Positions 2,870 through 64,000 of a stretch of 64,000 nucleotides of DNA are shown piece by piece. This stretch comes from Squalus acanthias (Eukaryota), in NCBI GenBank assembly GCA_030390025.1, contig CM059432.1:30692001-30756000 (forward strand), read 5' to 3'. The notes below the pieces were generated by a model. It did no database searches. It had not been told where the DNA came from and was given only the letters and a program-made list of their open reading frames with translations. Position numbers and translations under genes: made by a program. How positions within the stretch are numbered: the first letter of the stretch is position 1; each line of letters begins with the position of its first letter.

Positions 2870-3100
2870 TTCCTGAGGCCAACAAATTTCTTCCTTGCGT
2901 GCTCCCAGATTCAGTGCACAAGCAATACAGCGTTGAACCTCTGCCACCTCCACCCAGGCTGCATTGGCACTGCCATTGAGTGCAGGGTGGCCCTTAGCTC
3001 CAGGAAAGACCATAGTTATTTCTGGGAACTCCTGCAGCCCCATCACCAAAGCTGCTTCATTCAGGAACTCTTTGACTGTGGTTCTTTTCGACAGCCATTT
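2870..3100 (-). pseudogene. Decayed Harbinger Myb/SANT-like ORF fragment
   Basis: Minus strand VFPGAKGHP...AAWVEVAE, then after a frameshift ARKKFVGLRK; resembles W...EIA...RKKFNDL of the Myb-like genes at 24731 and 46694. Confidence 0.5.
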
Positions 3101-4160: not shown

Positions 4161-7100
4161 CATAGAAACATAGAAGATAGGAGCAGGAGTAGGCCATTCG
4201 ACCCCTCGAGCCTGTTCCGCCATTTAATGAGATCATGGCTGATCATCCAAATTCAGTACGCTGTCCCTGCTTTCTCCCCATATCCCTTGATCCCTTTAGC
4301 CTTAAGAAATATATCTAACTCCTTCTTGAATATATTTAATGAATTGGCCTCAACTGCCTTCTGTGGCAGAGAATTCCACAGGTTCACCACTCTCTGGGTG
4401 AGAAAATTCTTCCTCATCTCAGTCCGAAATGGCTCACCCCTTATCCCCAGACTGTGACCTCTGGTTCAGGACTCCCCCACCATCGGGAACATCCTCCTGC
4501 ATCTAGTCTGTCTAGTCCTGTTAGAATTTTATAAGTTTCAATGAGATCCCCTCTCATTCTTCTAAACTCTAGGGAATATAAGCCTAATCGACCCAATCTC
4601 TCTTCATACGTTATTCCTGCCATCCCAGGTATCAATCTGGTGAATCTTCGCTGCACTCCCTACATGGCAAGAACATCCTTCCTCAGATAAGGCAACCAAA
4701 ACTGCACACAATACTCAAGGTGTGGTCTCACCAAGGCCCTGTACAACTGCAGCAAGACATCTGTGCTCCTGTACTCGAATTCTCTCGCTATGAAGGCCAA
4801 CATACCATTTGCCTTCTTAACCGCCTGCTGCACCTGCATGCTTACCTTCAGCGACTGGTGCACAAGGACACCCAGGTCTCGTTGCACTTCCCCATTTTCC
4901 CAATCTATTGCCGTTCAGATAATAATCTGTCTTCCTGTTTTTGCCGCCAAAGTGGATAATCTCGCATTTATCCATATTATACTGCATCTGCCATGCATCT
5001 GCCCAATCACCCAACCTGTCCAAATCATACTGGAGTTTCTCTGCATCCTCCTCACAGCACACACGCCCACCCAGCTTTGTGTCGTCTGTAAACTTGAAGA
5101 TATTGGCCCAGAAATTAGACTTCGATGGTTGCCGCGGGGGTAAGGATCCCCCGCGATATCGCACTCCACGCCTGCCTTTATGGTTCGGGCCCACACGAAC
5201 TTCTGCTCCTGGGCCTCTCCCTGGTGCCGACGCGCAGTGTTTGCGTGTCCCAGAGGCGCAGTTAGTTCGATGCGACCTCTGGGATCATGTGGGCCAGTTA
5301 GAGCCAATGGCAGCACACCATCTTTCATTCATAGTTTTGACAGAAGAACTGTCAAAACTATGAATACAACTTGCCCCCAAAAGAACAGCTAAACCTCAAT
5401 TAAATTAAAAAAAACATCACATTAATAAAATAACTATAGTTAAATAAATTAACCACTTTAAACAAAAATCTAAATTTTTGACAAAATTTTAATTCTTATT
5501 AAAAGTTATAAAAATAAACTTACCTTTCTTTAAAGTCTCTAAAAAAGATAAACCTGTTGAAAAAAATGTAAAATAATACTTAATTAACTACTTACCTTGT
5601 TAAAAGGGGGTCTTACGCCTCCTTTTTTCATGTGTAAAATCTTCAATACTTACCCTCGCGTTCAAACCTGAAAAAAAAACCTAAGTGTGCTGCGTGCGCA
5701 CAGCCTGTAGTGCACACGCGGTTCACTTAGGAACCACCCCCTTCGCAATATCGGAAGTGCCGGTTTCCCGCGCATGCGCAGTGCATGCAGGAAACCGGCA
5801 CTTCGGGACCGAATACGGGTGAGTACACAGTGCGTACTCTCCCGTATTCGACCGAATTTCTGGGCCATTACATCTAGTTCCCTCGTCTAGATCATTAATA
5901 TATATTGTGAATAGCTGGGGTCCTAGCACCGATCCCTGCGGTACCCCACTAGTCACTGCCTGCCATTCGGAAAAAGACCCATTTATTCCAACTCTTTGCT
6001 TCCTGTCTGCCAACCAGTTCTCTATCCAAGTCAGTACCTTACCCCCAATCCCATGTGCTTTAACTTTGCACGCTAATCTCTTATGCGGGACCTTATCAAA
6101 AGCCTTCTGAAAGTCCAAATACACCACATCCACTGGTTCTCCCTTATCTATTCTACCAGTTACATCCTCAAAAAATTCCAGTAGATTAGTCAAGCATGAT
6201 TTACCTTTTGTAAATCCATGTTGACTTTGTCCGATCCTGTCACTGTTTTCCAAGTGCTCTGCTATTACATCTTTTATAATGGACTCTAGCATTTTCCCCA
6301 CTACCGATGTCAGGCTTACCGGTCTATAATTCCCCGTTTTCTCTCTACCACCTTTTTTAAATAGTGGGGTTACATTAGCTACCCTCCAATCCATGGGAAC
6401 TGTTCCAGAGTCTATAGAATTTTGGAAGATGACCAGCAATACATCTACTATTTCTAGGGCCACTTCCTTAAGTACCCTAGGATGTAGATTATCAGGCCCT
6501 GGGGATTTATCGGCCTTCAATCCCTTCAATTTCCCTAACATCATTTCCCTACAAATACTGATTTCATTCAATTCCTCCCTCTCATTAGACCCTATGTTCC
6601 CCGACATCTCTGGGAGGTTATTTGTGTCCTCCTTTGTGAAGAAAGAACCAAAGTATGTATTTAATTGGTCAGCCATTTCTTTGTTCCCCATTATAAATTC
6701 CCCTGATTCTGACTGCAAGGGACCTATGCTTGACTTCACCAATTTTTTTTTCTTCACATATCTATAGAAACTTTTACAGTCAGTTTTTATGTTCCCTGAA
6801 AGCTTACTCTCATATTCTATTTTACCCCTCTTAATTAATCCCTTTGTCCTCCTTTGCTGAATCCTAAATTGGTCCCAATCCTCAGGTTTGCTGCTTTTTC
6901 TGGCCAATTTATATGTCCTCTCCTTGGATCTTATGCTATCCCTAATTTCCCTTGTTAGAAACGGTTGAGTCACCTTTTTTGTTTTATTTTTATGCCAAAC
7001 AGGGATGAACAAATTCTGTAGTTCATCCATGTGATCTTTAAATGTTTGCCATTGCCTATCCACCGTCAACCCTTTAAGTAATGCTCCTCAATCCATCCTA

Positions 7101-7390
7101 GCCAACTCGCGCCTCATACCATCGTAGTTTCCTTTATTTAAATTCAGGACCCTAGTCTCTGAGTCAACTACTTCACTCTCCATCTTAATGAAGAATTCAT
7201 ATTATGATCGCTCCTCACCAAGGGGCCTCGCACAACAAGATTGCTAATTAATCCTTTCTCATTACATAATACCCAGTCTAAGTTGGCCTGATCTCTAGTT
7301 GGTTCCTCGACATATTGGTCCAGGAAACCATCCCGTATACTCTCTAGGAATTCCTCCTCCACAGTATTGTTACTAATTTAGTTAGCCCAA
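4161..7390 (-). mobile_element. 5'-truncated CR1 LINE (ORF2 endonuclease end and RT), interrupted by a MITE
   Basis: ORF 5723-7069 with [35 protein letters not shown]-terminal RRNFFTQRVVNLWNSLP-type motif; TTTCTATG-type tail; TCAC repeated at both junctions. Confidence 0.95.
5105..5866. mobile_element. Harbinger-type MITE, ~750-bp family, copy 1
   Basis: TIRs GGCCCAGAAATT / AATTTCTGGGCC; TSD ATT; the CR1 sequence rejoins when it is removed. Confidence 0.9.
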
Positions 7391-8195
7391 TCACTACACG
7401 GACTGCTGCGGTTCAAGAAGGCAGCTCACCACCACCTTCTCAAGGGCAACTAGGGACGGGCAATAAATGCTGGCCTTGCCAGCGATGCCCAGATCCCATG
7501 AACGAATAAATAAATAATTCCAAATGGGTATACAAGGAAAAGAGGGAACCAAGGTCAAATCACATGGAATTGTGCATGATGCTTGAAATCTGGGGCCTTA
7601 ATGAGGCTGAGGTGAAAATGGTTGTAAGTACTAGTGCTGTGAATTTCTTTGGGGCTTCTCCCGCTCTACTGCCATAACTTTAGCGTATCTTCTGCATAAG
7701 TGTGTGCAAAATAGGGGGGGTAGATTTTCACCTGTGCCCATTTGTGCAGAGGCAGGGCGTGCCTGAACCAAAAGGCCCGAGGATCACCAGAAATCAGCCC
7801 TCAGGCCTGATCTACATATTTTAGAAACATCAATTTCAGGCCGCATGCCCTCAGGTAAGTTCTGACAGGAGGTTTGGAGCGAGTGACGGAGGGGCCGATG
7901 CGAGGTATGTGGAGTCGGAGAGTTACTCCTGCTCCTCCTGGCTCCACAGAAAGATATTTTTCAAAAAAAATTATAAACAAACTTACATTTAGTTGGCAGC
8001 TGCAGGGGCCACTTAGGAATCCTGACCGGGGCAGGCCTGATGCCTGCATGATAACAAATTTTTTGAGGTGTCCTTTAACAGGCATTACATCCCTTGTTAA
8101 CATAGTCAGAAGGTCATGGGTTCAAGTCCAACTCAAGAGATTTGAGGGCATAATCTAAGCTTAAACTCTGGTATACTACTGAGGGAATACTGCAT

Positions 8196-8733
8196 TATCT
8201 GAGGAAGGATGTTCTTGCCATGGAGGGAGTGCAGCGAAGATTCACCAGACTGATACCTGGGATGGCAGGAATGACGTATGAGGAGAGATTGGGTCGATTG
8301 GGCTTATACTCACTGGAGTTTAGAAGAATGAGAGGGGATCTCATTGAAACTTATAAAATTCTAACAGGACTAGACAGACTAGATGCAGGAAGGATGTTCC
8401 CGATGGCTGGGGAGTCCAGAACCAGGGGTCACAGTCTAAGGATAAGGGGTGAGCCATTTAGGACAGAGATGAGGAGGAATTTCTTCACCCAGAGAGTGGT
8501 GAACCTGTGGAATTCTCTACCACAAAAGGCAGTAGAGGCCAATTCATTAAATATATTCAAGAAGGAGTTAGATATATTTCTTAAAGCCAAAGGGATCAAG
8601 GGATATGGAGAGAAGGCAGGGACAGGGTACTGAATTTGGATGATCAGCCATGATCGCATTGAATGGCGGAGCAGGTTCGAGGGGCTGAATGGCCTGCTCC
8701 TGCTCCTATCTTCTATGATTCTATGTTTCCATG
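8196..8733 (+). mobile_element. CR1 LINE 3' end
   Basis: ORF 8220-8633 [14 protein letters not shown]...KGYGEKAGTGY and TTCTATG-type tail. Confidence 0.95.
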
Positions 8734-8979
8734 TATTGTCGGAGCTGCTGTCTTTCTGGATGAGATGTTAAAGCGAGGCCCCGTCTGCCCTCTCAGGTGG
8801 ACTTACAAGATCCCATGGCACGATTTCAAAGAAGAGCAGGGGAATTCTCCCCGGTGTCCTGGCCAATATTTATCCCTCAACCAACATCAATAGGAAACAG
8901 ATTATTTGGTCATTATCACATTGCTGTTTTAGGGACCTTGCTGTGCGTAAATTGGCTACCGCTTTTCCTACATTACAAC

Positions 8980-10416
8980 AACAACAACATCTTGTATTTA
9001 TATAGCGCCTTTAACATAGCAAACCGTCCCAAGGCTCTTCACAGAAGTGTTATAAAATAAAAAAATTGACACTGAGCCACATAAGGAGAAATTAGGGCAG
9101 ATGACCAAAAGCTTGGTCAAAGAGGTAGGTTTTAAGGAGTGTCTTAAAGGAGGAAAGAGAGGTAGAGAGGCGGAAAGGTTTAGGCAGGCAGTTCCAGAGC
9201 TTCGGGCCTAGGCAACAGAAGGCACGGCCACCAATGGTTGAGTGATTATAATCAGGCATGCTCAAGAGGGCAGAATTAGAGGAGCGCAGATATCTTGGGG
9301 GGTTGTGGGGCTGGAGGAGATTACAGAGATAGGGAGGGGCAAGGCCATGGAGGGATTTGAAAACAAGGATGAAAATTTTAAAGTTGAGGCATTGCTTAAC
9401 CGGGAGCCAATGTAGGTCAGCAAGCACAGGGGTGATGGGTGAATGGGACTTGTTGCGAGTTAGGACAAGAGCAGTCATGTTTTGGATGACCTCAAGCTTA
9501 CGTAGGGTAGAATGTGGGATGAAAGCCAGGAGTGCGTTGGAATAGTCAAGTCTACAGGTAAGAAAGGCATGGATGAGGGTTTCAGCAGCAGATGGACTGA
9601 GGCAGGGGCGGAGACGGGCGATGTTACGGAGGTGGAAAAAGGCAGTCTTAGTTATGCTGCGGATATGAGGTCAGAAGCTCATTTGAGGGTCAAATATGAC
9701 ACCACGGTTGCGAACAGTCTGGTTCAGCCTCAGACAGATGCTAGGGAGAGGGATGGAGTTGTTGGCTAGGGAACGGAGTTTGTGGCGGGGACCAAAGATA
9801 GTGGCTTCGGTCTTCCCAATATTTAATTGGAGAAAATTTCTGCTCATCCAGTACTGGATGTCGGACAAGCAGTCTGACAATTTAGAGACCGTGGAGGAGT
9901 CGAAAGAAGTGGTAGTGAGATAGAGCTGGGTGTCGTCAGCGTACATGTGGAAACTGACGCTGTGTTTTTGGATGATGTCGCCAAGGGGCAGCATGTAGCT
10001 GAGAAATAGGAGGGGGCCAAGGATAGATCCTTGGGGGACACCAGAGGTAATGATGCGGGAGCGGGAAGAGAAGCCGTTGCAGGTGATTCTCTGGTTACGA
10101 TTAGGTAGATAAGAATGGAACCAGGCGAGTGCAGTCCCACCCAGCTGGACGACGGTGGAGAGGCGTTTGAGAAGGATGGAGTGGTCAACCATGTCAAAGG
10201 CTGCAGACAGGTCGAGAAGGACGAGGAAGGATAGTTTACCTTTGTCACAGTCACAAAGGATATCATTTGTGTCTTTGATGAGAGCCGTTTCGGTACTGTG
10301 GCAGGGGCGGAAACCTAATTAGAGGGGTTCAAACATGGATATCCGGGAAATATGGGCACAGATTTGATAGGCGATAACACGTTCAAGGACTTTCTAGAGG
10401 GAAGGGAGATTGGAGA
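8980..10416 (-). mobile_element. 5'-truncated L2 LINE
   Basis: GVPQGSILGPLLF, HMYADDTQLY, LQLNIGKTE, PITPVLADLHWLPV, FKTLLKTYLF; (TTG)n tail. Confidence 0.92.
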
Positions 10417-11054
10417 TTATAACAGTGACTACACTTCAAAAGTACTTCATTGGCTGGAAAGCATTTTAGGACGGCCTGAGGTCGTGAAAGGCACTATATA
10501 AATGCAAGTTCCTTTTTGAGATAGAAATATACATTGTATTCCAAGCTCGAGGCTTAGCTGAATGTATGAACTGCATGAGTTCTTCCATCACAGTTTATGA
10601 CAACATATTGTCTTTCCTTTCCTTAGTTTTAAAGTTATATCATATGCCTTGCAGGCATTCAGTCAGTTTCAGTTAATCTTTGTGCAGTTTACTTGCTTTC
10701 ACTAAAGTTTGAGGCTATATATATAAGTTATAACTGTGCCAGAAATCTTCGTAACCCATGTGGCTTAAGCGAATGTTGCAATTGACGACACTCTCTTACT
10801 TAAAATAAATCACCACACATACGAGTTAAGTTTAAGAGTCAATATATTCCTGGACGTTGCCAGGATATGAGAGTACTGAGTATATAGAGCCGATTTTAAC
10901 TTGGGCTGGGAATCGAGGGGCTGAAGCTGCAGCGGACCATTTGCAACCACCACCCCCACCCCCCCCCGTCGCCCCCGAGCATGAAACCTTGGTGATTTTA
11001 AATCCCAGGCCTCATTTACAAGCCCCGACTAAGATGCCTGCCCAAAGCCCAACA

Positions 11055-27802: not shown

Positions 27803-28977
27803 TCATTTGAAGCGGAGTCTGATGAGGTGGTCACGGACCGCCCTTCCGCAAGGCCGATTGAGTGGCTGCCTCCTCCCTCGACCCTGTTCCTCCTCCTCCC
27901 CGTCCTCCCCGTCCTCCTCCTCATCTTCTTCTTCTTCCTCCTGAGGTGGTCCCGCAATCCCTGGTGGCAAGGGCTGGGCCCTCATGATGGCCAAGTTGTG
28001 GAGCATGCAACTGACCATCATGAAAAGGGACAACTGCTCAGCCGAGTACTGGAAGGCTCCTCCCGAGTGGTCAAGGCACCGGAACCGTTGCTTCAGCAGG
28101 CCAATGGTCTGCTCGATGATGTTCCTGGTGGCAGCATGGCTCTCATTATATGAGTGCTGGGTATGAGAGTTGGGGTTGCGGAGGGGCGTCATGAGCCAGC
28201 TGGAGAGTGGATAGCCCATGTCTCTGAGCAGCCAGCCGTGAGCTTGATGTGGTAGCTGGAAGAGTGCTGACACACCGGTCTGGCGCAGGATGAAGGCATC
28301 ATGCCTGCTGCCAGGATAGCGGGCATTCACATTGAGGATTCGCTGTCTGTGGTTGCACACCAACTGCACGTTAAGTGAGTGGTAGCCTTTGCGGTTACGG
28401 AAGATCTCAGGATTGTTATGCAGTGCCCGCAAAGCCACGTGGGTGCAATCAATGGTGCCCTGCACCATGGGTAATCCTGCTATCCTGGAAAAGCCACAAG
28501 CACACTTGTCCTGCTTCTCTCTGGTGATGGGGAAGGAAATGTAATCCCTTCTCCTACTGTAGCGAGCCTCTGTAACCTTCCAGATGCAGCGATGGATGTC
28601 GAGCTGCGAGATGTTAGCTATATCTCCTGTTGCAGACTGGAAGGATCCGCTGGTGAAGAAATTGAGGACGACGGTGACCTTGACTGCCAATGGAAGAGCC
28701 GTGGTCACCCTGGTCTGAGGCTAGATGTCCTGTTGCAGGGGGTGGCAGAGTTCTGTGACCACCTCCTTGGTGAAGGAGGGCCTTCTAGTACACTGCTCCT
28801 CGCTTAATTGGAGGCAGGGGAAGTGCTCTCGGAATACCCTTGGACGGTAAGGCCTCCTGTTGAGAGCCCTCATGCCCCTCCTCCTCCCTCTGCGCACATG
28901 TTCCATCTTTCTCGCTTCCTCCGCTCCCTCTGCCATAGATCCTGGAGGGCGAGGTTGACTAGCAGTACAGCCCCCAT
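27803..28977 (-). pseudogene. Harbinger DDE transposase (HARBI1-like family); N-terminus frameshifted, C-terminal 301 aa open
   Basis: GSFQSATGD, GTIDCTH, NRKGYHSLNVQLVC, YPGSRHDAFIL, LLRDMGY, IEQTIGLLKQRFRCL, CMLHN and acidic tail. Confidence 0.92.
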
Positions 28978-32210: not shown

Positions 32211-34216
32211 AGCAGATTGGTAGGGATGCTGAGGTGCTGCCCCGGGAGAGTGGCAGTGGGTCAGTGCAGCAGGAACCTGCTGTCCTCTCTCAGGCTGACA
32301 GCATTCCTGCTCCCACCACTGCCACTCCGCCATTGCCCTTGTCGCTGCCTGTAATCCAATCAGGCCAGACTGCCGCCACCCAAACTAAGGTGGTGTAGTG
32401 TACAGCCAGGCCTTCCAGGCTCAGAGCTGCTCGAGGGCATCCTGCACTGACACTCAGCAGCCTTCCACCAGCCCTGCTGCAGCCACCGGGGATAGACTAG
32501 AAGGAGCAGTAGATTCGAAAAAGGCATTGTAAAGAGGGGAAGTAAGGGTTTGCACAATGGTGATTAGTTAATATTGTTGTATATATATGTTTAATGAATG
32601 TTGATAAATTTATTAATGGAATTTTGCAGAATTTGTGCTGTCTCTCATTTCAGCTTTGTGCTGTGATATGGCATGCAAAATGGATGGAATAATGGGGATG
32701 TGGTGAGCAACTGGGATGTGGGGTAGACCTTATTGGAACCGCAGTCTGATGAGGCGGTCATTGACCGCCCTTCCAGAAGGCCGATTGAGTGGCTGCCTCC
32801 TCCCTCGCTGTTGTTCCTCCTCCTGGTGCTCCTCCTCCTCCTCTTCTCCCTCTTCCTCCTCCTGAGATGATCCCACGATGCCTGGTGGCAATGGCTGGGT
32901 CCTCATGATGACCAAGTTATGCAGCATGCAGCATACCACCACGAAAAGGGACAACTGCTCAGCCAAGTACAGGAAGTCCCCTCCCGAGCGGTAAAGGCAG
33001 CCGAACTGTTGCTTGAGCACTCCGATGGTCTGCTCGATGATGTTCCTGGTGGCGGCATGGCCAGGTGGAGATTGGATAGCCCTTGTCTCCGACCAGCCAG
33101 CCGCGAGCTGGTCTGGAGCAGGATGAAGGCATCGTGGCTGCTTCCAGGATAGCGGGCATTGATGGTGAGGATTCGCTGTCTGTGGTCGCACACCAACTGG
33201 ACATTAAGTGAGTGGTAGCCTTTGTGGTTACGGAAGAACTCAGGATTGTTACGGGGTGCTCGCAAAGCGACGTGGATACAGTCAATTGCACCCCGCACCA
33301 TGGGGAAGCCCACTATTCTGGCAAAGCCACATGCACGCTCATCCTGCTTCACTCTGGTGATGGGGAAGGAAATGTAGTCCCCTTCTGTAGGGAGCCTCTG
33401 TGACCTCCCAGATGCAGCAATGGACGGCGAGCTGCAAGATGTTAGATATGTCTCCTGTTGCAGGCTGGAAGGATCCGCTGGCGTAGAAATTGAGGGAGAC
33501 GATGACCTTGACTGCCACTGGGAGTGGTCCTGATCTGAGGCTCGAGGGCTGGCTGCAGGAGGTGGCAGAGCTCTGTGACCACCTCCTTGGTGAAGCGGAG
33601 CCTTCTAATACACTGCTCCTCAGTTAAATTTATGTAGAAGAAGTGCTTCCAGAATACCCTGGGAGGATAAGGCCTCCTGTTGAGAGCCCTCCTCCTTCTG
33701 GCCACATTTTCCAATGTTTGTCTCTGCCTCTGCTGCCTCCGATGTTGATGCTGGAGGGCGAGGTCGAGGGCCAGTGCAGCCCCCATTAACGTAATCAAGT
33801 GTAGGACTTTGAAATCTTAGCAGAATGAAATGACAAATTTTTAGCAGGCAGAACACCCCTGAAAGTAAGAAACTTTTAACTCACTGAAAACGGCTGTTTT
33901 GCAGTGTGAAACTGAGAAGGCCGCATTGATTGGCCACTAAAATGAAACCGGATGTTGATCCCTTTAAATACCGCTCCTACAGCGGCCATCTGAATGCATA
34001 ATGCCTCCTCTTCCTGCCATTGTTCAGGCGAGGCGCTAAGGCAGGGGCGACAGTCAATTTTGCATCTGGGCCGTTAACGGGGCGTTCCAAACTCATTGAG
34101 GTCACGATCTGGCAGCCGCTAAATGTTAGCGCCAGCGCTAAATCCCGGGTGAATTTCACGTGCGGCATTGGATTCGCCACTAACGGGAGGCGCTAACATG
34201 CCGAATATCTCTGCCC
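32211..34216. mobile_element. Truncated Harbinger (Myb-like 3' end, transposase pseudogene, one terminus)
   Basis: Homologous to ~26190-29418; terminus GAATATCTCTGCCC; other end missing. Confidence 0.85.
32730..33786 (-). pseudogene. Harbinger transposase, frameshifted and internally deleted
   Basis: GAIDCIH, YPGSSHDAF, WLVGDKGY and IEQTIGVLKQ spread over different frames. Confidence 0.88.
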
Positions 34217-38759: not shown

Positions 38760-39690
38760 TAACCTGCAGCCTTTGACACGGTTGACCAGGGTTGACCACA
38801 CACCACCTTCCTCCAACGCCTCTCCTCTGCCTTCCAGCTGGGTGGAACTTCACTCACCTGGTTCCATTATTATCTATCCAGTTGTAGCCAGAGCATTACC
38901 TGCAATGGCTTCTCTTCGTGCTCTTGCACCGTTACCTCTGGAGTCCCCCAAGGATCTATCTAAATTGTCAGACTGTTTATCTGATATGGGTATGGTAGCA
39001 TAGTGGTTATATTACTGGACTAATAATCCAGAGGACTAATGATCCAGAGACATGAGTTCAAATCCCACCACGGCAGCTGGGGAATTTAAATTCAATTAAA
39101 TAAATCTGGAATAAAAAGCATCAAGTATCAGTAAGGGTGACCATGAAACTACCATCTGGTTTACTAATGCCCTTATATAGGGAAGGAAATCTGCTGTCCT
39201 TACCTGCTCTGGCCTATGTGTGGCTCCAGACCCCCAGACCCACAGCAATGTGGTTGACTCTTAACTGCCCTCTGAAATGGCCAAGCAACTATCTAACCTC
39301 TACAAAGAAGTGGTTCAAGAAGGTGGCTCACCACCACCTTCAAGGGCAATTAGGAATGGGCAATAAATGCTGGCTTTTCCAGTGATGCCCACATCCTATG
39401 AACGAATAAAAAAAAAAATCCAGTACTCAAGGAAAAATTTCCTCCAACTAAATATTGGGAAGACCGAAGCCATTGTCTTCGGACCCCACCACAAACTTCA
39501 TTCCTTAGCTACCAACTCCATCCCTCTTCCTGGCAACTGTTCGAGGCTGAACCAGACTATTGCAACCTTGGTCTCGTATTTGACTCCAAGAGGGGCTTCC
39601 GACCATATATCCGCGACATCACTGAGACCGCCGTAACATCTGCTGCTGAAACCCTCATCTATGCCTTTGTTACATCTAGACTTGAATATT
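38760..39690 (+). mobile_element. Internally deleted L2 fragment hosting a SINE
   Basis: Matches the reverse complement of parts of 8980-10416; NFLQLNIGKTEAIVFGP. Confidence 0.8.
38988..39417 (+). mobile_element. tRNA-headed SINE made of the 5' and 3' ends of the LINE at 59065-62190
   Basis: A-box TAGCATAGTGG (38996-39006); B-box AGTTCAAATCC (39055-39065); LINE 3' end and poly(A); host L2 rejoins with AT duplicated. Confidence 0.85.
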
Positions 39691-43956: not shown

Positions 43957-45053
43957 TCACGTTCTGTAGCGTGACATGAAACTGAGATCCCGGTTGAGGC
44001 TGTCCTCATGGGTTCGAAACTTGGCTATCAGTTTCTGCTCGATGATTTTGCGTTGTCGTGTGTCTCGAAGGCCGCCTTGGAGAGCGCTAACCCGCAGATC
44101 AGAGGCTGAATGTTCTTGACTGCTGAAGTGTTCCCCGACTGGGAGGTAACAATCCTGCCTGTCGATTGTTGCGCGGTATCCGTTCATACATTGTCTCAGT
44201 GTCTGCATGGTCTCGCTGATGTACCATGCCGCGGTGCATTCTTTCCTGCAACGTATGAGGTAGACAACGTTGGCCGAGTCACATGAGTATGTACCATGTA
44301 CCTGGTGGGTAGTGTCCTCACGTGTGATGATGGTATCTGTGTTGATGATCTGGCATGTCTTGCAGAGGTTGCCGTGGCAGGGTTGTGTGGTGTCGTGGTC
44401 GCTGTTCTCCTGAAAGCTGGGTAATTTGCTGCGAACGATGGTACTTTTGAGGTTAGGTGGCTGCTTGAAGGCGAGTAGTGGAGGCGTGGGGATGGCCTTA
44501 GCGAGGTGTTCGTCGTCATCGATGACATGTTGAAGGCTGCGAAGAACATGGCGTAGTTTCTCCGCTCCGGGGAAGTACTGGGCGATGTAGGGTACTCTGT
44601 TGGTTGTGTCCCGTGTTCGCCTTCTGAGGAGGTCTATGCGATTTTTCGCTGTGGCCCGTCGGAACTGTCGATCGACGAGTCGAGCATCATATCCCGTTCT
44701 TATGAGGGCGTCTTTCAGCGTCCGTAGGTGTCCATCGCGTTCCTCCTCGTCTGAGCAGATCCTGTGTATTCGCAGGGCTTGTCCATAGGGGATGGCTTCT
44801 TTAACGTGGTTAGGGTGGAAGCAGGAGAAGTGGAGCATCGTGAGGTTGTCCATGGGCTTGCGGTAGAGTGAAGTGCTGAGGTGTCCATCTTTGATGGAGA
44901 TTCGTGTGCCCAAGAATGAAACCGATTCTGAGGAGTAGTCCATGGTGAGTTTGATGGTGGGATGGAACCTGTTGATGTTATCGTGTAGTCCTTTCAGTGA
45001 TCCTTCGCCATGGGTCCAAAGGAAGAAGATGTCGTCGATGTATCTGGTGTACA
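43957..45053 (-). CDS. Penelope RT C-terminus and GIY-YIG endonuclease (partial, 365 aa open)
   Basis: RYIDDIF, TSLYRKP, IPYGQALRIHRICS, C..LCKTC, NVVYLIRCRKEC...YISET, GEHF; some GIY-YIG residues look mutated (YIGET to YISET). Confidence 0.88.
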
Positions 45054-45079
45054 TTTGTTACCTCTAGACAACTATTCCC

Positions 45080-46152: not shown

Positions 46153-46693
46153 AGTAAATCCATGATCCTTGGCTCACAATCAGCAGACTGCACTCAATGG
46201 AAGTGCAAGTCAGAGATAGTGCTACAAAATTGTAGCCCCAATACCCCAACCCACACCCCCATTGAGCATATGATCGTGAATTTACACCCTTTAGATCACG
46301 TCACTTCATAACTGTAATTGGTGTGACGCCATCACATGATGAAATCCCTTGACAGCAATCAATTTCCTGTTTTCAAAATATCTAATTCTACCATCTTCCC
46401 ATTACAACACTTAGGCCTAGAAATTGGATAAGGCCCAAAAACGGGGGTGGGGTCCCGGCCAGTGCTATTTGCCTGTGCCTCTTCTAAGTGGTGCAGGCAG
46501 CACGCAAAATTCAAGCTTTTTGCGCCGTAACATGATTGGCGCGCTGATCTCAGCACTAAACGTGCAGCTGATTGGCTTAGTGCTCAACGGGGGAGCCAAT
46601 ATCGGGTGCATTCTAATGGCCAATAAAGTTTGGCCTCAGCTCTCTCCACTACTCAAAGGACAGGTGCTTTGTTGCAGAAGCACCTCATTGTCA

Positions 46694-48522
46694 ATGGCCC
46701 AACAACCAAGAGGCAGAGACAGACGATTATCCGATGCTGCGCTGGAGGCCTTGGTCCTGGGGGGTCCAACAAAGGTGGTCTGTCCTTTACCCGCAGGGAG
46801 GCAAGACACCATCCAACCTCGTCAGCAGAAGGATTTGGGAGGAGATCGCACAATCCGTTACGGCCACCAGTGTTGTCCCAAGGACCTGGATTCAGTGGCG
46901 CAAAAAGTTTAATGACCTCACACGGCTATTCAAGGTGAGTGAAGGCTTCAGCAAATGCCATATCCCACCATCTGCACCACAAACCTCACACACTGCTCAA
47001 TGCATTATACGCCCATCGATCACCTACCAACAATCTCTAGCTATCACCACTCATACCTCACAATCAAGGCTTCACTTCACCCTCACTAATTACCACTGCT
47101 GCAACACTCACACCCACATCTCACACCTTGCACACACTGACAATTATTCAACCATGACAGGCACATCATCCAAACACATTTCACCACACACACTTCCCTT
47201 TCTCTTGCAGGCAAAGATGGCACAGAACAGACCTGAGCAACAACAGATCGGAGGCAGCCAAGCCAGGATTGAGATCCTGACTGACCTCGAGGAATCCACC
47301 TTTGAAATTATTGGAGGGGCAGTAACAGAGTCCGTGGCCAGCGGTGAAGTTGAAACCATTGCTGATGATGACGGTATGGTCATACCTAATCCTTCTTCTC
47401 ACATCCCACTTCCCCCTCACCCCACAATTTCTTCTCACTTATAAGCTGCTGATGGTGTATGAGTGGATATCTTGCTTTCCTCCCTCCCCTCACCACAACC
47501 CAACCCTTGCGCCTTTCTGCTTTCAGATACCCAAGAAGTGCCACCAGCACAGCCTATCCCTTATCATCATTAACAAACTGATGGAGGAGACGAAGAAGAA
47601 GAAGATGAAGAAGAAATACCAGCAGGGAATTTGACACTTGCAGACACCAGCTCAGAAAATGGCATTGTGCACTTTAGAGGCGGGATCTGCACATGGTGAG
47701 TCACTTGGAATGAGTGGGCTGCAGCCAGGCCAGGGAGAAAGGGTAGCTATGGTGTCAGCTTCCCGGTGGGCGATTTCACGCACGTGTTCTGCTCCACAGG
47801 ACTCAGATGGTGACCTCGAAGGGGCGGACTTCAGAAGAAGGGCGATGAGCATACACACGGAAATGCTGGGTGCAATGGCAAGCCTGCCAGAGAGCCTCTT
47901 GTCAGTGTCAAGGAGCATAGAGGAATCCAGCTCCAACATTGCACGGGGCTTTGCTCAGAGCTTGCAACCCATTATTTCCAGGATGAAAATGATGTACAAC
48001 TCCAGGAGAGACCTTCTGGACCCACGGATGATGCTGGGTGTGATGGGTGATCTTGCAGCTTCCATTACAGCACAGGTGGAAGTGACCCAACATCTCACTT
48101 CTGCAGTGGAAGCTCAGATTGCTGCCATCATCGCTGGGTTTATGAGTCTCGAAAGGGTGTCGCAGCAGTCCAGCAATCTGTCCTCCAGCAGATTGCTAGG
48201 AATGCTGAGGTGCTGCCGCTGGAGAGTGGCAGTGTGTCTGGAGCAAGAACCTGCTGTCCTCTCTCAGGAGGACAGCATTCCTACTCCCACCACTGCCACT
48301 GCGCCATTGCCTACTAGCCAGCCAGCCTAGACTATTGCCGCCCATTCCGAGGTGGTGCATCTATAGCTGGGCCTTCTAGGTCCAGAGCTGGTCGAGGTCA
48401 TCCTGGAAGGCCATCTGTAGTCTCCCCCACTGAAAGTCAGCCACTGGGTGAGCACTGCGAGTACTAGAGTAGGTAAAGGCACACGAAAGACAGCCACGAA
48501 GGGAATACACAAGGGTGAATAG
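46694..48522 (+). pseudogene. Harbinger Myb/SANT-like gene (exons ~46694-46934, 47211-47373, 47527-48522), frameshifted
   Basis: LSDAALEALV...IWEEIAQSVTATSVVPRTWIQWRKKFNDL; GT-AG introns at positions equivalent to those in 24731-26543. Confidence 0.82.
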
Positions 48523-48654
48523 TTGAGATTGTCATTGTGATTGGATCTTGATAAATTTATCAATTTTGTTGGAATGTGTGTTTTGTAGTGGCTCTCATTT
48601 CAGCTTTGTGCCCAGGAGGACGCTGTGATATTCCATGACAGAGGGATGGTAAGA

Positions 48655-49181
48655 TGTGTGTGCAGTCGATAGTGTCCTGCAGCATGGGAAGGCCGCTATC
48701 CTGGCAAAGCCACATGCACGCTCATCCTGCTTCTCTCTGTTCAGAGAGAAAACAAAGAAGTCCCTTCTCCTGGAGCAGAGAACCTCTGTGACCTCCCGGA
48801 TGCAGCGATGGACGGCGAACTGTGAGATGTTAGCTATGTCTCCTGCTGCAGACTGGAAGGATCCGATGGCAAAAAAATTGACCTTGAGGGCCACTGGGAG
48901 AGCCTTGGTCACTGTTCTCTGAGGCTGCAGGTCTGGTTGCAGGAGGTGGCAGTGTTCTGTGACCAGCTCCTTGGTGAAGCGGAACCACCTAATACACTGC
49001 TCCTGGCTTAAGTGCAGATAAGAGAAGTGCTCTCGGAAGACCCTAGGTGGATAAGGCCTCCTGCTGAGAACCCTCCTGGCCCCACTCCTCCTCCCTCTGC
49101 GAGTATCTTCTCCTCTTCTTCGCTGCCTCTGATGTCCCAATGATACTCGAGCGAGAGGGGGACTGCAAGTAGAGCCCCTAT
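48655..49181 (-). pseudogene. Harbinger transposase, N-terminal part only
   Basis: RRPYPPRVFREH, GSFQSAAGD, then TIDCTH joined directly to 3' UTR-like sequence. Confidence 0.85.
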
Positions 49182-49694
49182 AACTGTGAGCAAGCGGTGT
49201 GAGCAGAAGCCTTTAAATGAGAAACAAGGCATTCTCCACTTGCACCAACACTCCCTGTGACCTTAGCAACTTTAAACAAGTTTAGAAAGCTCCAAGAGTT
49301 GCAAACACTTAGACAGAGCCAGTAGAACTGAAAAAGCATGTCAGCTGCAAGTTGTTGATGATGATCACTTTAAATAGTGCTGCTGGGGGCTCCTTCCTGC
49401 AGCTGGTCGTGATTAGGAGAGGCCGGTATGTGGAGCGGCGACGTCAAAATTTGGCAGATCATGCGTCAAATCAGTGTTGCACACTCATTGACGTCACGAC
49501 CTGCCTCATTTCCATTTCTGCAGCGAGCACAGGCAACGGCAACACTGCCGACCTTCCCAAAATGGCGGCCGCTGCGGGACCCGCCGGAAGGGGACGGAAG
49601 CAAGTCGGCTGCCATTTTTTCTTCAAAATGGGCTTTAACGGCCGGCGCTAAACCCCCGAATTTCTAGGCCTTAGTTTTTTCTTAAATCACCAGA

Positions 49695-53163: not shown

Positions 53164-55169
53164 ATGGCAGTGCAGGTGGTGTGCTGTAACTGCAGCATGT
53201 GGGAGTTTGTGGAGACCAGCGAGACCCCGAGCAACCACATCTGCAGTAAGATGGTTGTGGTGGTTGAAGGTCAATCATCACAGCCCCAGTACATCGCTGC
53301 AGGAGTTCCTCAGGGCAGTGTCCTAGGCCCAACCATCTTCAGCTGCTTCATCAATGACCTTCCCTCCAACATAAGGTCAGAAATGGGGATGTTCGCTGAT
53401 GACTGCACAGTGTTCAGCACCATTCGCAACTCCACAGATAATGAAGCAGTCCATGCCCGCATGCAACAAGACCTGGACAACGTTCAGGCTTGGGCTGATA
53501 AGTGGCAGGTAACATTCACGCCACAGAAGTGCCAGGCAATGACTATCTCCAACAAGCGAGAGTCTAACCACCTTCCATTGACATTCAATGGCATTACCAT
53601 CGCCGAATCCCCCACTATCAACATCCTGGGGGTCACCATTAACCAGAAACTTAACTGGACCAGCCACATAAATACTGTGGCAACAAGAGCAGGTCAGAGG
53701 CTAGGTATTCTGCGGCGAGTGTCTCACCTCCTGACTCCCCAAAGCCTTTCCACCATCTACAAGGCACAAGTAAGGAGTGTGATGGAATACTCTCCGCTTG
53801 CCTGGATGAGTGTAGCTCCAACAACACTCAAGAAGCTCGACACCATCCAGGACAAAGCAGCCCACTTGATTGGCACCCCATCCACCACCTTAAACATTCA
53901 CTCCCTCCACCACCGGCGTACCGTGGCTGCAGTGTGTACCATCTACAAGATGCACTGCAGCAACTCGCCAAGGCTTCTTCGGCAGCACTTCCCAAACCCG
54001 CGACCTCTTCCACCTAGAAGAACAAGGACAGCACGCGCATGGGAACACCACCACCACCAAGTTCCCCTCCAAGTCACACACCATCCTGACTTAGAAGTAT
54101 ATCGCTGATCCTTCATCGTCGCTGGGTCAAAATCCTGGAACTCCCTACCTAACAGCACTGTGGGAGTACCATCACCACACGGACTGCAGCGGTTCAAGAA
54201 GGTGGCTCACCACCACATTCTCAAGGGCAACTAGGGATGGGCAATAAATGCTGGCATTGCCAGCGACGCCCTGATCCCATAAACAAATTAAAAAAAAGTG
54301 TCTGCAGCTCGAGGAACTTTGGCTCAGAGTTGTTGAGCTGGAGTCTGAGGTGCAGACATTGCGGAGCCTCAGTGAGGGGGAGGGTTACCTGGACACTTTG
54401 TTCCAGGAGGCAGTCACACCCCTTAGATTAAGTAGTACTTTAGAGTTTGTCAATGGTCAGGGACAGGAGGGTGTGACCGCGAGTCAACAAGGTATGGGGA
54501 CCCAGAATGTAGTGATGGAGGAGTCTCAGCCCTTGACTTTGACCAACAGGTATGAAATACTTGTTACCTGTGGGGATGAAAACAAGGACTGCAGGGTGGA
54601 TGAACAAACTGACCATGGCATCATGATGCAGGAGGCCATACAAATGGAGGTAGTGAAAATGAACGTGGTAGTGGTAGGGGACAGTATAGTCAGAGGGATA
54701 GATACTTCTCTGCAGCCGCGACCAGGAGTTCCGAAGGTTGCGTTGCCTGCCTGGTGCCAGGGTAAAGGATGTCTCCTCGCGGCTGGAGAAGAACTTGGGG
54801 TGGGAGGGGGAGGATCCAGTTGTCATGGTACATGTAGCAACCAACAACATAGATAGAACTAGGAATGAGGTTCTGCTGAGAGAGTTTGAGGAGCGAGGGT
54901 CAAAATTAAAATGCAGAACCTCACAGGTAATAATCTCTGGATTTTTACCTGAGCCACATACAAATTGGCAAAGGGACAAACAGATTAGAAGGTTAAATGC
55001 GTGGCTCAAAGAGTGGTGTGGGAGGCAGGGGTTTCAATTCATGGGGCAGTGGCACCAGTACTGGGGAAAGAGGGAGGTGTTCCGTGGGGACGGGCTCCAC
55101 TTAAACCGGGCTGGGACCACAGTCCTGGCAAATCGAATAACTGAGGCAGTAGATAGGACTTTAAACTAA
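53164..55169 (+). pseudogene. CR1 ORF1 (Cys zinc finger, leucine zipper, SGNH esterase), interrupted at 53251-54297
   Basis: VCCNCSMWE...HICSK|CLQLEELWLRVVELE; VVGDSIVRG; HVATNN; DGLHLN. Confidence 0.88.
53251..54297 (+). mobile_element. Well-preserved 5'-truncated copy of the tRNA-headed LINE family
   Basis: [37 protein letters not shown]; poly(A) end; splits CR1 ORF1. Confidence 0.92.
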
Positions 55170-58744: not shown

Positions 58745-61700
58745 TACATAGGGACAGGAGTAGACCGTACAGACCCTCGAGCCTGTTCTGTCATTCAATC
58801 AGATCATAGCTGAACTGTACCTCAATTCCATTTACCCGCCTTTGATCGATATCCCTTGATACCTCTAGCTAGCAAAGATTTATCGATCTCAGTCTTGAAA
58901 ATTCCAATTGATAGCAGTCTTTTGGAGACATAATTTCACCTTTCCATGACTTTTTGTGTGAAAAAGTGCTTCCTGCTTTCACTCCTGAATGGCCTCGCTC
59001 TATTTTTTAACATTGTGCCCGTCATGTTCTGGATTCCCCAACCAGAGGTAATAACTTCTCAGCATTTTTTTAGTTTATTCATTCATGGAATGTGGGCGTC
59101 GCTGGCAAGGACAGCATTTATTGCCCATCCCTAATTACTCTTGAGAAGATAGTGGTGAGCCATGACTTGAACCACTGCAGTCCGTGTGGTGAAAGTACTC
59201 CCACAGTGCTGTTAGGTGGGGAGTTCCAGGATTTTGAACCAGCGACGATGAAGGAACGGCAATATATTTCCAAGTCAGGATCATTCGTGCCGTGGAGGGG
59301 AACTTGGAGGTGGTGGTGTTCCCATGCTCCTGCTGCCTTTCTCCTTCTAGGTGGTACAGGTCGCGGGTTTGGAAGGTGCTCTCGAAGAAGCCTTGGAGAG
59401 TTGCTGCAGTGCATCTTGTAGATGGTACACACTGCAGCCACGGTGCGCTGGTGGTCGAGGGAGTGAATGTTTAAGGTGGTGGATGGGGTGCCAATCAAGT
59501 GGGCTGCTTTGTCCTGAATGGTGTTGAGCCTCTTGAGTGTTGTTGGAGCTGCACTCATCCAGGCAAGTGGAGCGTATTCCATCACACTCCTTACTTGTGC
59601 CTTGTGGGTGGTAGAAAGGCTTTGGGGAGTCAGGAGGTGGGTCACTCACCACAGAATATCCAGCCTCTGACCTGCTCTTGTAGCCACAGTATATATGTGG
59701 CTGGTCCAGTTAAGTTTCTGGGCAATGGTGACTCCCAGGATGTTGCTTGTGGGGAATTTGATGATGGTAATGCTATTGAATGTCAAGGGGAAGTGGTTAG
59801 ACTCTCTTGTTGGAGATGATCATTGCCTGGCACTTGTGTGGCCCAAATGTTACTTGCCACTTATCAGCCCAAGCCTGGATGTTGTCCAGGTCATGTTGTA
59901 TGCGGGCACGGACTGCGCCGTTATCTGATGAATAGCGAATGGAACTGAACACAATGCAATCATCAGCGAACATCCCCACTTCCCCAGCTGAAGTTGTTTG
60001 GGCCTAGGAAACTGCCCTGAGGAACTCCTGCATTGATGTCCTCGGGCCGAGATGATTGGCCTCCAACAAACATGATCATCTTTCTTTGTGCTAGGTATGA
60101 TTCCAACCAGTGGAGAGTTTTCCCTGATCCTCATTGACATCAATTTTACTAGGGTTTCAAATGCTGCCTTGATGTCAAGGGCAGTCACTCTCACCTCACC
60201 TCTGGAATTCAGTTCTTTTGTCCAATTTTGGACCAAGGCTGTAATGAGGTCTGGAAGCCAAGTGGTCCTGGTGGAACCCAAACATTAGCATTGGTGAGTA
60301 AGTGCCACTTGATTGCACTGTCAACGACACCTTCCATCACTTTGCTGATGATTGAGAGTAGGCTGATGGAGTGGAAAGTGGCCAGATTTAATTTGTCCTG
60401 CTTTTTGTGGACAGGGCATATCTGGTCAATTTTCCACTTTGTCGGGTAGACACCAGTGTTGTAGCTGTGCTGGAACAGCTTGGCTAGAGCACGGCTAGTT
60501 CTGGAGCACAGGTCTTCGGCACTACAGCCGGGATGTTTTTGGGGCCCATAGCCTTTGCTGTATTCAGTTCGCTCAGCCATTCCTTGACATCACGTGGAGT
60601 GATTCGAATTGGCTGAAGACTGGTATCTGTGATGGTGGGGATCTCAGGAGGAGGCCAAGATGGATCATCCACTCGGCACGCATGACTGAAGATGGTTGTG
60701 AATGCTTCAGTCTTGACTTTTGCACTTATATGCTGGGCTCCTCTATCATTGAGGATAGGGATTGTCATGGAGCCTCCTCCTCCCGTTAGCTGTTTAATTG
60801 TCCACCACTATTCACGACTGAATGTGGCAGGACTGCAGAGCTTTGATCTGATCCATTGGTTGTGGTATCGCTTAGCTCTGTCTATAGCATGCTGCTTCTG
60901 CTGTTTAGCATGCATGCTGTGTTGTAGCAACACCAGGTTGACACCTCATTTTTTAGGAATGCCTGGTGCTGCTCCTGGCATGCTCTTCTACACTTCAATT
61001 GAACCAGAGTTGGTCCCCTGGCTTGATGGTAATGGTAGAGTGAGGGATATGCCGGACCATGAGGTTACAGATTGTGGTGGAATTTAATTCTGCTGCTGCT
61101 GATGGCCCACAGCACCTCATGGATACCCAGTTTTGAGCTGCTAGATCTGTCCTGAATCTATCCCATTTAGCACGATGGAGGGTGTCCTCAGTGTGAACAT
61201 GGGACTTCGTCTCCATAAGGACTGTGCAGTGGTCACTCCTACCAATACTGTCATAGACAGATACATCTGCGACAAGTAGATTGGTGAGGACAAGGTCAAG
61301 AAGGTTTTTCCCTCACCATCTGCCGCAAGACCAGTTTGGCAGTTATGTCGTTCAGGACTTGGCCAGCTCAGTCAGTAGTAGTGCTACCGAGCCACTCTTG
61401 GTGACGGGCATTGAAGTGCCCCACCCAGAGTACATTCTGTGCATTTGCTGTCCTCAGTGCTTCTTCCAAATAGTGTTCAAAATGGAAGAATACTGAATCA
61501 TCAGCTGAGGGAGGGTGATAGGTTGTAATCAGCAGGAGGTTTCCCTGCCCATGTTTGACCTGATGCCATTAGACATTATGGGGTCCAGAGTCAATGTTGA
61601 GGACTCCCAGTGCCACTCCCTCTCCACAGTATATAACTGTGTTGAATCCTGTGGGACAGGACATACCCAGGGATTATGATGGAGGAGTCTGGGATGTTAG

Positions 61701-62353
61701 CTGATAGGTCTGATTCTGTGAGTATGGCTATGTCAGGATATTGCTTGACAAGTCTGTGGGACAGCTCTCCCAATTTTGACACAAGTCCACAGATGTTAGT
61801 GAGAGGACTTTGCCGGGTCGACTGGGCTGGGTTGTGTCCGAGTCCGATGCCTAGGTTGACCCGTACGGTTTTATTATTATTATACCTTTTTGTAGTGGTT
61901 TGATACAACTGAGTCGCTCGCTAAGCCATTTCAGAGGGCTGTTAAGAGTCAACTGCATTGTTGTTGGTCTGAAGTCACATATAGGCCAGACTGGGAAAAG
62001 ACGACAGGTTTCCTTCCCTAAAGGACATTAGTGAACCAGTTGGGTTTTTATGACTAATCATGGTCACCATTACTAATACTAGCTTTTTGTTCCAGATTTA
62101 TTTAATTAACTGAATTCAAGTTCACAAAATGCCATGGTGGGAATTGAACCCCCGAATGACTAGTCCAGTAACATAACCAATATGCTACCATATCTACTCT
62201 ATTGACTCCTTTTATCATTTTAAAATTTCAACTTGATCAACCTTCAACCTTCTAAACTAAAAGGAATACATCCCAGGTTTATGCAACATATCCTCATAAT
62301 TTAACCTGTTAAGGTCTGGGATAATTCTGGTGCATCTGCGCTGTACACTCTCC
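58745..62353 (-). mobile_element. Old CR1 3' fragment (58745-59064 and 62191-62353) split by the tRNA-headed LINE
   Basis: CR1 3' UTR and C-terminal sequence continue on both sides of the insertion. Confidence 0.75.
59065..62190 (-). mobile_element. Near full-length single-ORF endonuclease-RT LINE with a tRNA-type 5' head (CR1/L2 group, clade unresolved), decayed
   Basis: A-box 62187-62177; B-box 62150-62140; endonuclease start NICGLVSKLGEL...PDIAILTES; SISLLSIISKVME, ALDIKAAF, MFADDC; A-rich tail. Confidence 0.88.
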
Positions 62354-63005: not shown

Positions 63006-64000
63006 ACTCATCTGACGCTTCAACAAAAAACTTTTTTTCTTCCTTTCTGATGTCAAGGATCGCAAGCTTCATCAACTCTTGAACACCAACGTCCCTCCGG
63101 AACCTTCTTCCCCTTCATTTTCCTCTGACCCCCCTTCTCCCAATCTCACCCCCTGCTGCGTTTTCACTATCCCTTCTGACCTCCCCCTTTCTGACCCCGA
63201 ACGATCAGTCCTCAGCAAAGGCCTGAGCTTCATCCCCTTACGCCCCCACCTCAATGAATTTCGAGCTCGGCACGATGCTGGGCTCTTTTTCTGCCGCCTT
63301 CGCCTCCATGCCCACTTCTTTGGCCAGGAGTCTTCCGCCCGCACGGCTGACCCATTCTCCCGCTTTCAGAATTCCCGTTCTACCTGGACCCCTCCCTCTG
63401 GCCTCTTACCCTCTCTAGATCGTTTCATTGCTAACTGCCGGCGTGACATCGGCCGTCTCAATTTCTCTGCTCCACTCTCTCACTCCAACCTACCTCCCTC
63501 TGAACTTGCAGCACTCTATTCCCTCAGATCCAACCCCGACATTGTCATTAAACCTGCTGACAAGGGTGGTGCTGTTGTTGTTTGGCGTACCGACCTCTAC
63601 TAGCAGAAGCTGAACGCCAACTCTCCGACACCTCCTCCTACCTCCACCTGGACCATGACCCCACTATCGATCATCAAACCACCATTTCCAAGACCGTCAC
63701 TGACCTCATCTCCTCTGGAGATCTTCCCCGCACGGCCGCCAACCTCATAGTTCCCCAACCCCGCACAGCCCGCTTCTACCTCCTTCCCAAGATCCACAAA
63801 CAGTACTGCCCTGGTAGACCCATCGTTTCAGCCTGTTCTTGCCCCACGGAACTTATCTCTTCCTATCTCGACTCTATTTTTTCTCCCCTTATGCAGTCTC
63901 TTCCCACCTACATCCGCGACTCTTCCGACGCCCTCCGCCACTTTAACAGTTTCCAGTTTCCCGGCCCCAACCGCCTCCTTTTCACTATGGACGTACAATC
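63005..64000 (+). pseudogene. Penelope-like element (C-rich, probably family 2), RT N-terminal region; runs off the window
   Basis: LSKGLSFIP and IKPADKGGAVVVW; after a frameshift near 63600, FYLLPKIHK...PGRPIVS and LFTMDVQS. Confidence 0.9.

Follow-up and report, generated by a model that had tools for sequence, protein, structure and literature searches.

A shark SINE composed of the two ends of a LINE with a tRNA-type head

The SINE and LINE copies of the window

The window, that is, the whole 64-kb stretch of spiny dogfish DNA that was analysed, carries at 38988-39417 a SINE of 430 bp in which the front end of a LINE is joined to its back end and the coding middle is absent. The LINE itself is found at 62190-59060 on the reverse strand as a 3.1-kb copy in which one decayed EN-RT ORF follows directly after the head, without any ORF1. 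Only two heads were present within the 64 kb, at SINE 38988 and at LINE 62190. The features of the SINE and of the LINE copies are listed below.

38986-38987, forward strand: left copy of the target-site duplication (AT) in the host L2; on an empty L2 copy, AT is common to both flanks
38988-39070, forward strand: tRNA-like head with A box, B box and a long extra arm (Rfam tRNA, A...B pattern and, by eye, the layout of Zenon heads)
39071-39289, forward strand: body common to the 5' region of the LINE, probably the Deu domain (alignment to the LINE; Deu label from the literature)
39290-39308, forward strand: final segment of the head, corresponding to the LINE bases directly before the A-rich tract and the start of the ORF
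39309-39356, forward strand: last ~15 codons of the LINE ORF (identity to the end of the 54-kb copy)
39357-39407, forward strand: 3' UTR of the LINE with a stem-loop (alignment and folding)
39408-39419, forward strand: poly(A) tail and right AT copy, the latter at 39418-39419 (A-rich end and comparison with the empty site)
61887-62190, reverse strand: head of the full-length LINE, comprising a tRNA-like part with a 22-nt gap, the body and the pre-ORF segment (alignment; by eye, 5' ends of the SquAca_Zenon type)
59131-61880, reverse strand: decayed single EN-RT ORF of the Zenon LINE with many frameshifts and stops and a T-run-poor sense strand
59060-59130, reverse strand: 3' UTR of the full-length LINE with its A-rich terminus; AT and CR1-like sequence of the host come next
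53245-54300, forward strand: 5'-truncated copy of the same LINE with the RT frame open (RVT_1, E 2e-20)
3452-4162, forward strand: fragment of the same LINE (similarity search)
7391-7517, forward strand: tail-only copy of the same LINE or of the SINE (similarity search and tail alignment)

When the front part of the SINE (38988-39308) was aligned to the LINE (62192-61887, reverse strand), 235 of 284 columns were identical (83%) and the match reached the A-tract that precedes the ORF. A BLAST comparison of SINE bases 4-294 with the LINE head gave 214 identities in 304 columns, 49 of them with gaps (E 9e-43), and ended at base 294. Beyond this end, SINE 39290-39308 matched LINE 61905-61887 at 16 of 19 positions without gaps; this was the top site for the segment across the 3.1-kb LINE, with a score equalled in none of 300 shuffles, and the LINE tail regions matched the same bases at 9 of 19 positions at most. 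The back part (bases 322-430) was 81% identical to the 62-kb copy, 85% to the 54-kb copy and 87% to the 7.4-kb copy, so that 39309-39417 represents the final ~15 codons, the 3' UTR and the poly(A) of the LINE. As the head match ends at 39308 and the tail match starts at 39309-39310, at most about one base is private to the SINE. The first-pass annotation, made from the letters alone, had claimed that the first ~320 nt are the 5' end of the LINE and that the element jumps near 39310 to the last ~105 nt of the LINE; both claims were borne out, and the two-part anatomy of the SINE, without a foreign middle, is confirmed.

The initial ~46 bases of the SINE tail correspond to terminal codons of the Zenon ORF and read WFKKVAHHHL before a 2-nt deletion shifts the frame. 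They correspond to RFKKVAHHHILKGN and stop in the 54-kb LINE copy, whose end (GLQRFKKVAHHHILKGN and stop) aligned with the C-termini of the invertebrate-type homologues P0018, P0021 and P0022; the protein HSPs of P0018 and P0020 extend to 54222 in this copy. In the SINE, the 15-residue C-terminal piece was unscored by the protein profile, and it is taken as coding from its DNA identity with the 54-kb copy. Folding of 39310-39410 revealed a stem-loop (z -3.2, reached in 0 of 200 shuffles) and the same hairpin was obtained with the 54-kb tail (z -2.9). The heads and bodies gave no folding signal (z +0.25 to -0.97 for four of the six pieces).

Relative to the LINE head, the SINE carries several small indels. 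A 22-nt stretch of the tRNA-like part is kept in the SINE and missing from the 62-kb LINE copy, so the SINE was not derived from that copy itself. The Rfam tRNA model matched SINE 38995-39069 with 16.7 bits, below the gathering score of 29 (E 1.3), and ARAGORN detected no tRNA in the window, while a pattern of A box and B box matched the heads of both the SINE and the LINE. The body at 39071-39289 is presumably the Deu domain, a label which we take from its layout and the literature.

On the empty L2 copy, the left flank of the SINE extends to 9858 and the right one begins at 9859, with a 2-base overlap (AT), in keeping with the earlier claim that the SINE sits in an L2 with AT duplicated. The marks of insertion are thus an A11 tract and the AT duplication relative to the empty site, a 2-bp duplication beside a poly(A) being weak on its own. 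Compared to the L2 copy at 10022-9886, the host L2 also lacks ~136 nt, with the gap located at 38960-38961, ~28 nt to the left of the SINE. By eye, apparent very short target duplications (AT, AAG and AAT) flank the copies at 62190/59060, 53245/54297 and 7391/7517, respectively, that of the SINE being the only one confirmed on an empty site. A-rich ends were found at 59060, 54290-54297 and 39408-39418.

In the full-length LINE, the endonuclease begins ~80 nt past the head, and the HSPs span residues 38-950 of P0019. Its best long homologues are single proteins of ~930-990 aa, almost all of them unnamed, with identities of up to 49%, and Pfam matched one of five pieces. In a quick tree of RTs, used for grouping only and containing no labelled Zenon reference, the LINE fell in a starred clade of 26 rows, apart from the CR1 and L2 elements of the window. 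In this copy, the conserved head motif contains an ATG that shares the frame of the endonuclease (61929-61594, reverse strand) and is followed by a stop after two codons; the whale-shark gene model P0001 begins at the same ATG, without the stop. Since the ATG of the published consensuses lies further on, behind the A-tract, the frame of the head ATG is probably due to chance or decay.

Headed Zenon elements in sharks and rays and their joined forms

As judged from its sequence, the LINE corresponds to the Zenon family of elasmobranchs, which has a single EN-RT ORF and lacks ORF1. Supplementary Table 2 of PMC13343379 contains ten Zenon consensuses, of which seven are from elasmobranchs, two from hagfish and one from the coelacanth, and the elements of elasmobranchs share with the window LINE a single EN-RT ORF without ORF1, a poly(A) and a length of ~3.3 kb. 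Within the first 400 letters of each table row, compared by eye and by motif search, the head, the pre-ATG segment and the start of the endonuclease of the window LINE matched SquAca_Zenon-1 and -3. By eye, all seven elasmobranch consensuses, which come from white shark, stingray, whale shark, catshark and spiny dogfish (three), open with a head containing A and B boxes followed by the same body, pre-ATG segment, A-tract and ATG (PMC13343379), the heads of the window being most like the dogfish-type consensus. Such a head was absent from the first 400 nt of all three hagfish and coelacanth Zenon rows, again by eye. When the first 400 letters of each of the 1,004 table rows were searched for the head motifs, these were found in the seven Zenon rows and in three rows of unrelated context, and in no chimaera row (PMC13343379). 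For six Zenon families, Table S3 of the same paper gives copy numbers of 2313, 1419, 612, 396, 294 and 59, which count copies of the family and not headed copies as such.

In addition, the whale-shark gene models P0001 and P0006 run from the head into the endonuclease (two of the 15 proteins found with the N-terminal piece). A comparison of the N-terminal piece with longer proteins yielded none among 143 candidates. Given the seven consensuses and the two gene models, the sequences support the headed LINE as a family-wide form; the first-pass annotation had named LINE heads nested in SINE diversity as sporadic chimeras as a case against its own proposal, and the sporadic occurrence was not borne out. 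In the main text of PMC13343379 the words tRNA, polymerase III and promoter have no match and SINE occurs in the reference list only, so the Zenon head, although present in published sequences, seems to have gone unremarked there.

The tRNA-like heads differ in the region of the long extra arm (window 39030-39050), the sequence of the dogfish type being distinct from that of the white-shark, catshark and whale-shark type; by eye it looks paired in both. The stingray consensus and the 62-kb copy have no long extra arm.

Relatives of the LINE were also sought in a prokaryote genome collection, in which 511 of 602 pattern matches encode LINE-like EN-RT relatives; 80 loci encoding related ORFs (L001-L080) were taken from it. 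The location of many of them on short contigs in bins of animal-associated bacteria suggests that these bins contain DNA of the host animals. The upstream test retained 34 of the 80 loci, those with the N-terminus present and at least 450 nt upstream, and no B box was found in any of these 34 invertebrate-type loci. A head profile run over the 80 loci gave a best match with E 0.09, which lay inside an ORF. ARAGORN detected nothing in the 37 loci to which it was applied, but this is uninformative since it was blind to the head of the window too. The sole control DNA in the starred clade of the shark element, L002, has an open 953-aa Zenon-like ORF and a poly(A) within positions 1-3099, with its 5' end cut off and just 66 nt upstream; the source genomes of L002 and L003 yielded no further copy with a 5' end. 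The head motif had no match in viral contigs or in two metagenome scans, and a protein alignment screen of viral contigs confirmed 0 of 49 candidates.

Head-to-tail joints were followed in the contigs of four of the 24 sequencing runs listed, from four organisms, aligned to the LINE rather than to the SINE, so that the SINE junction was probed indirectly. Joined forms were detected in all four runs, at three or more position pairs among the 15 joints listed of 8294. The commonest joint, 59136/61925, was represented by 5, 4, 11 and 8 contigs in the four runs, with undetermined letters between the halves that blur its breakpoint. The joint 59200/61893 occurred in two of the four runs, in one contig each, with depths of 41.7 and 307.9 compared to 11-23 for the eight long X8 pieces listed; it ends at the same pre-ATG place as the SINE and enters the tail ~25 nt earlier. 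A third joint, 59351/62003, was found in one run. Thus, joined head-to-tail forms are general and varied. The first-pass annotation had suggested a search for the same junction and for other breakpoints: other breakpoints are present at three position pairs across the four runs, but the junction of the SINE itself (~59176/61889 on the LINE) is absent among the 15 joints listed of 8294. No contig piece bridging head and endonuclease was found among the 32 pieces listed. The depth was continuous over the bin 61775-61885 (42,000-174,000 vs. 1,100-10,800 in the flanking bin), a bin that mixes linker and endonuclease and in which depth is not copy number.

Known SINEs and the order of events

SacSINE1 is described as a SINE of 463 bp (PMC2746220) with a tRNA head, a Deu domain and a tail shared with a LINE, its conserved part being ~124-258 (Table 1 of PMC5499810). 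By its layout, the SINE at 38988-39417 is likely a Deu-SINE of the SacSINE1 type: like SacSINE1, SacSINE1-CM and LmeSINE1, it has a tRNA-like head, a central body and a LINE-shared tail, SacSINE1 comes also from a shark host, and the 430 bp of the window copy, with several small deletions relative to the LINE head, stand against ~463 bp. The papers on SacSINE1, in the passages concerned with it (PMC5499810, PMC2746220, PMC3747384), tie the tail alone to a LINE (L2-2_CM or CR1-4_DR-like). In contrast, the window SINE has its head and body also at the 5' end of its partner LINE, and this partner appears to be a Zenon.

SINEs with tRNA head and Deu domain related to SacSINE1 are reported from the chimaera (218,294 insertions) and from the coelacanth, with homology over head, Deu domain and tail, and those of the chimaera were dated to 434-488 Ma with a rough clock (PMC5499810). 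No headed Zenon consensus of chimaera or coelacanth was found in the first 400 letters per row of the tables of PMC13343379. The SINE may predate the headed LINE if the layout of the chimaera and coelacanth SINEs equals that of the window SINE. The Deu domain is also described as joined to 5S heads and to other tails (PMC3747384, PMC4824008), part of it occurs in animals ranging from cnidarians to vertebrates, joined to varied tails of which some are called L2-related (PMC4824008), and in bivalves CR1-Zenon was named as a partner of Deu SINEs (PMC11481361).

Bipartite LINE derivatives are given in PMC5786205 for RTE, Ingi, Vingi and R2 only, and are thought there to be Pol II-transcribed forms to which a small-RNA or tRNA head is added afterwards to make them SINEs. 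RIME/Ingi, Vingi, Bov-A/Bov-tA and WALLSI (PMC5786205, PMC7245038) resemble the window SINE in that they join the 5' end of a LINE to its 3' end and have lost what lies between. The system of the window differs from them in that the LINE belongs to the CR1 group and is already headed, and a deletion alone would yield a SINE.

Template-switch chimeras of the U6-L1 type also join a small-RNA-like head to a LINE and are inserted as one unit, and most of them are one-off and 5'-truncated. The Zenon head differs from such chimeras in being fixed in a family across five species and in preceding a full ORF. Chimeras of small RNAs with LINEs by template switch are mentioned in the discussion of PMC5499810. 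No description of a tRNA-headed or SINE-headed Zenon was found in the literature searched, which did not extend to Repbase Reports and most subscription journals. It appears that SacSINE1 (by inference) and the elasmobranch Zenon (by sequence) were each already known and that the relation between them is undescribed.

The reading that we prefer, with a probability of roughly 0.55, is that the SINE is a deletion form of a headed Zenon, the head of which had come earlier from an older Deu-SINE. The headed Zenon would have consisted of a tRNA-derived head with A and B boxes and a Deu-type body, then an A-tract and one EN-RT ORF, and the stretch from the pre-ATG segment to the last ~15 codons would have been lost, either by a template jump in reverse transcription or by a DNA deletion in a master copy. 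The remaining unit would possess an internal promoter, a 3' stem-loop and a poly(A) at once and could thus become a working SINE in one step, to be copied by the Zenon protein. The Zenon head itself would most likely derive from an older Deu-SINE, in a loop by which a SINE head passes to a LINE and the LINE gives rise to a SINE. We infer that the head was captured first, that deletion came last and that the junction was amplified. A final deletion is favoured by the lack of a private middle, the coding sequence in the tail and the several breakpoints; a layout without private middle comes free with deletion, whereas capture alone needs a breakpoint placed on the border between SINE body and tail. 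Capture as the first step is favoured by the SINEs of chimaera and coelacanth without a reported headed Zenon, the joining of Deu to 5S heads and other tails, and the 0 of 34 relatives with a B box.

Therefore, the first-pass idea of a SINE arising by one deletion from a Pol III LINE probably describes the last step, as indicated by the near absence of private bases, the coding tail and the joints, but its independence from an earlier tRNA-SINE is made improbable by the chimaera and coelacanth SINEs (PMC5499810). For its alternative, in which a LINE captures a SINE head, published data point to an older SINE from which the head was taken (PMC5499810), but capture alone ranks below capture followed by deletion.

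It is rather unlikely that the SINE came first and no deletion took place, i.e. that a classical SacSINE1 (tRNA, Deu body and Zenon tail) had its non-tail part captured later by Zenon, once, through a template switch in the ancestor of sharks and rays, the match at two ends being a side effect. The SacSINE1 relatives in chimaera and coelacanth (PMC5499810) would fit this order, as would the report of Zenon only from elasmobranchs, coelacanth and hagfish, with vertebrate Zenons not being monophyletic (PMC13343379), the lack of a head in 34 of 34 relatives, and a length of 430 bp with small deletions near the 463 bp of SacSINE1 (PMC2746220). However, the capture point would have to coincide with the border between body and tail of the SINE, the several head-to-tail breakpoints are more simply explained by repeated deletion, and the Zenon-coded tail requires a Zenon donor at least as old as the tail of the SINE. 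Improbable, too, is a tRNA-headed Zenon that was already present in early jawed vertebrates with the Deu domain as its 5' UTR, of which SacSINE1, LmeSINE1 and the 5S-headed Deu-SINEs would be deletion forms, the LINE having been lost or gone unrecognised outside elasmobranchs. Such an origin accounts for the exact two-part layout, fits the hypothesis that derives SINE bodies from the 5' parts of bipartite LINEs (PMC5786205) and agrees with CR1-Zenon as the named partner of bivalve Deu SINEs (PMC11481361), but no head or Deu-like match was detected upstream of the 34 related ORFs, the first 400 nt of the three other vertebrate Zenons are without a head (PMC13343379), and part of Deu extends from cnidarians to vertebrates with varied, partly L2-related tails (PMC4824008).

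We consider it very improbable that a full-length headed Zenon was inserted at this locus, lost 2.8 kb later by a local deletion and never moved. The junction of the SINE was not seen elsewhere, either in the window or among the 15 joints listed of 8294, and the SINE copy has several small indels and a 136-nt deletion in the nearby host L2, as such a history would predict; yet head-to-tail forms occur in all four runs, SacSINE1 has been described with such a size and layout (PMC5499810, PMC2746220), and a chance deletion would rarely stop at the pre-ATG tract, where the joint 59200/61893 also stops. Taken singly, the copy at 38988 is probably an ordinary member of a known SINE family, and the interest lies in the relation between SINE and LINE.

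Insertion of a Zenon ORF into a SINE with an L2 tail was considered as well and was disfavoured, as the tail includes C-terminal codons of the Zenon type, assigned by DNA identity to the 54-kb copy.

T-runs of the sense strand and the polymerase

Transcription of the LINE by Pol III would lead one to expect few runs of T in its sense strand. In the body of the LINE, 10 runs of three or more T were found vs. 22.8 expected from base content (ratio ~0.46, p 0.002), and one run of four or more vs. 5.0 expected (p 0.04); runs of A, C and G were normal. With dinucleotide shuffles of the full LINE copy, runs of three or more T were still below expectation (13 vs. 21.1, p 0.007), as they were in two non-independent LINE fragments (1 vs. 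5.1, p 0.017, and 1 vs. 3.4, p 0.056), and the depletion of runs of four or more was not significant (3 vs. 4.1, p 0.36), nor was the depletion of T4 against synonymous shuffles (p 0.39). The ratio of TTT to TTC codons in the LINE (4:18) was borderline (p 0.09).

As a control, 54 of the 80 loci with an ORF span of 1.8-3.3 kb were used, many of which come from few host assemblies and are not independent; compared to these related ORFs, the T3 ratio of the LINE (0.46) was the lowest (range 0.82-1.68, median 1.05). The T4 ratio was 0.21 in the LINE and 0.28 in its clade-mate L002, which has one T4 run. None of the seven CR1, L2 and Penelope-like stretches of the window showed depletion of T-runs. 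The sense strand of the LINE contains three T4 runs and no T5 in 3116 nt, and two of the three T4 runs sit in the head at places where, by eye, the published consensuses have none (PMC13343379). Content of Phe was also tried as a sign of Pol III and was rejected, being 2.6% vs. 2.8% in 120 homologues.

The poverty in T-runs fits transcription of the LINE by Pol III, for which we see about even odds; alternatively, the head may serve Pol II or have a role in RNA processing. Reading by Pol III raises the question of how translation of an uncapped RNA would proceed.

In the usual view, SINEs are chimeras with a small-RNA head, a body of obscure origin and a LINE tail, and LINEs are Pol II units. 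A LINE family with a whole SINE front end in five shark and ray species, with SINEs formed by its two ends, would blur this split, and the headed Zenon would provide a way for a LINE to become a SINE in one step and, possibly, a way back. It can be proposed tentatively, with the odds somewhat against it, that sharks and rays carry an autonomous coding LINE which Pol III transcribes from an internal promoter of tRNA origin, with a coding strand purged of T-runs, of which SINEs of the SacSINE1 type are repeated one-step deletion products. If this were true, the Deu domain would gain a concrete job as a LINE 5' leader, e.g. in the translation of uncapped RNA. Two questions become testable in this way, namely what purpose Deu and other conserved SINE bodies have, and whether a coding retrotransposon of 3 kb can be served by Pol III.

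Other elements were observed in the window apart from those described above. At 43957-45057 and 63016-63603 there are ORF pieces with RT and GIY-YIG similarity, which we assume to be Penelope-like; the former stretch was used as a control for the T-runs. A set of three related ORFs, decayed and transposase-like, together with a Myb/SANT-like ORF nearby (27803-28720, 32903-33604, 48595-49212 and 46617-47444), looks like parts of what we take to be Harbinger elements.
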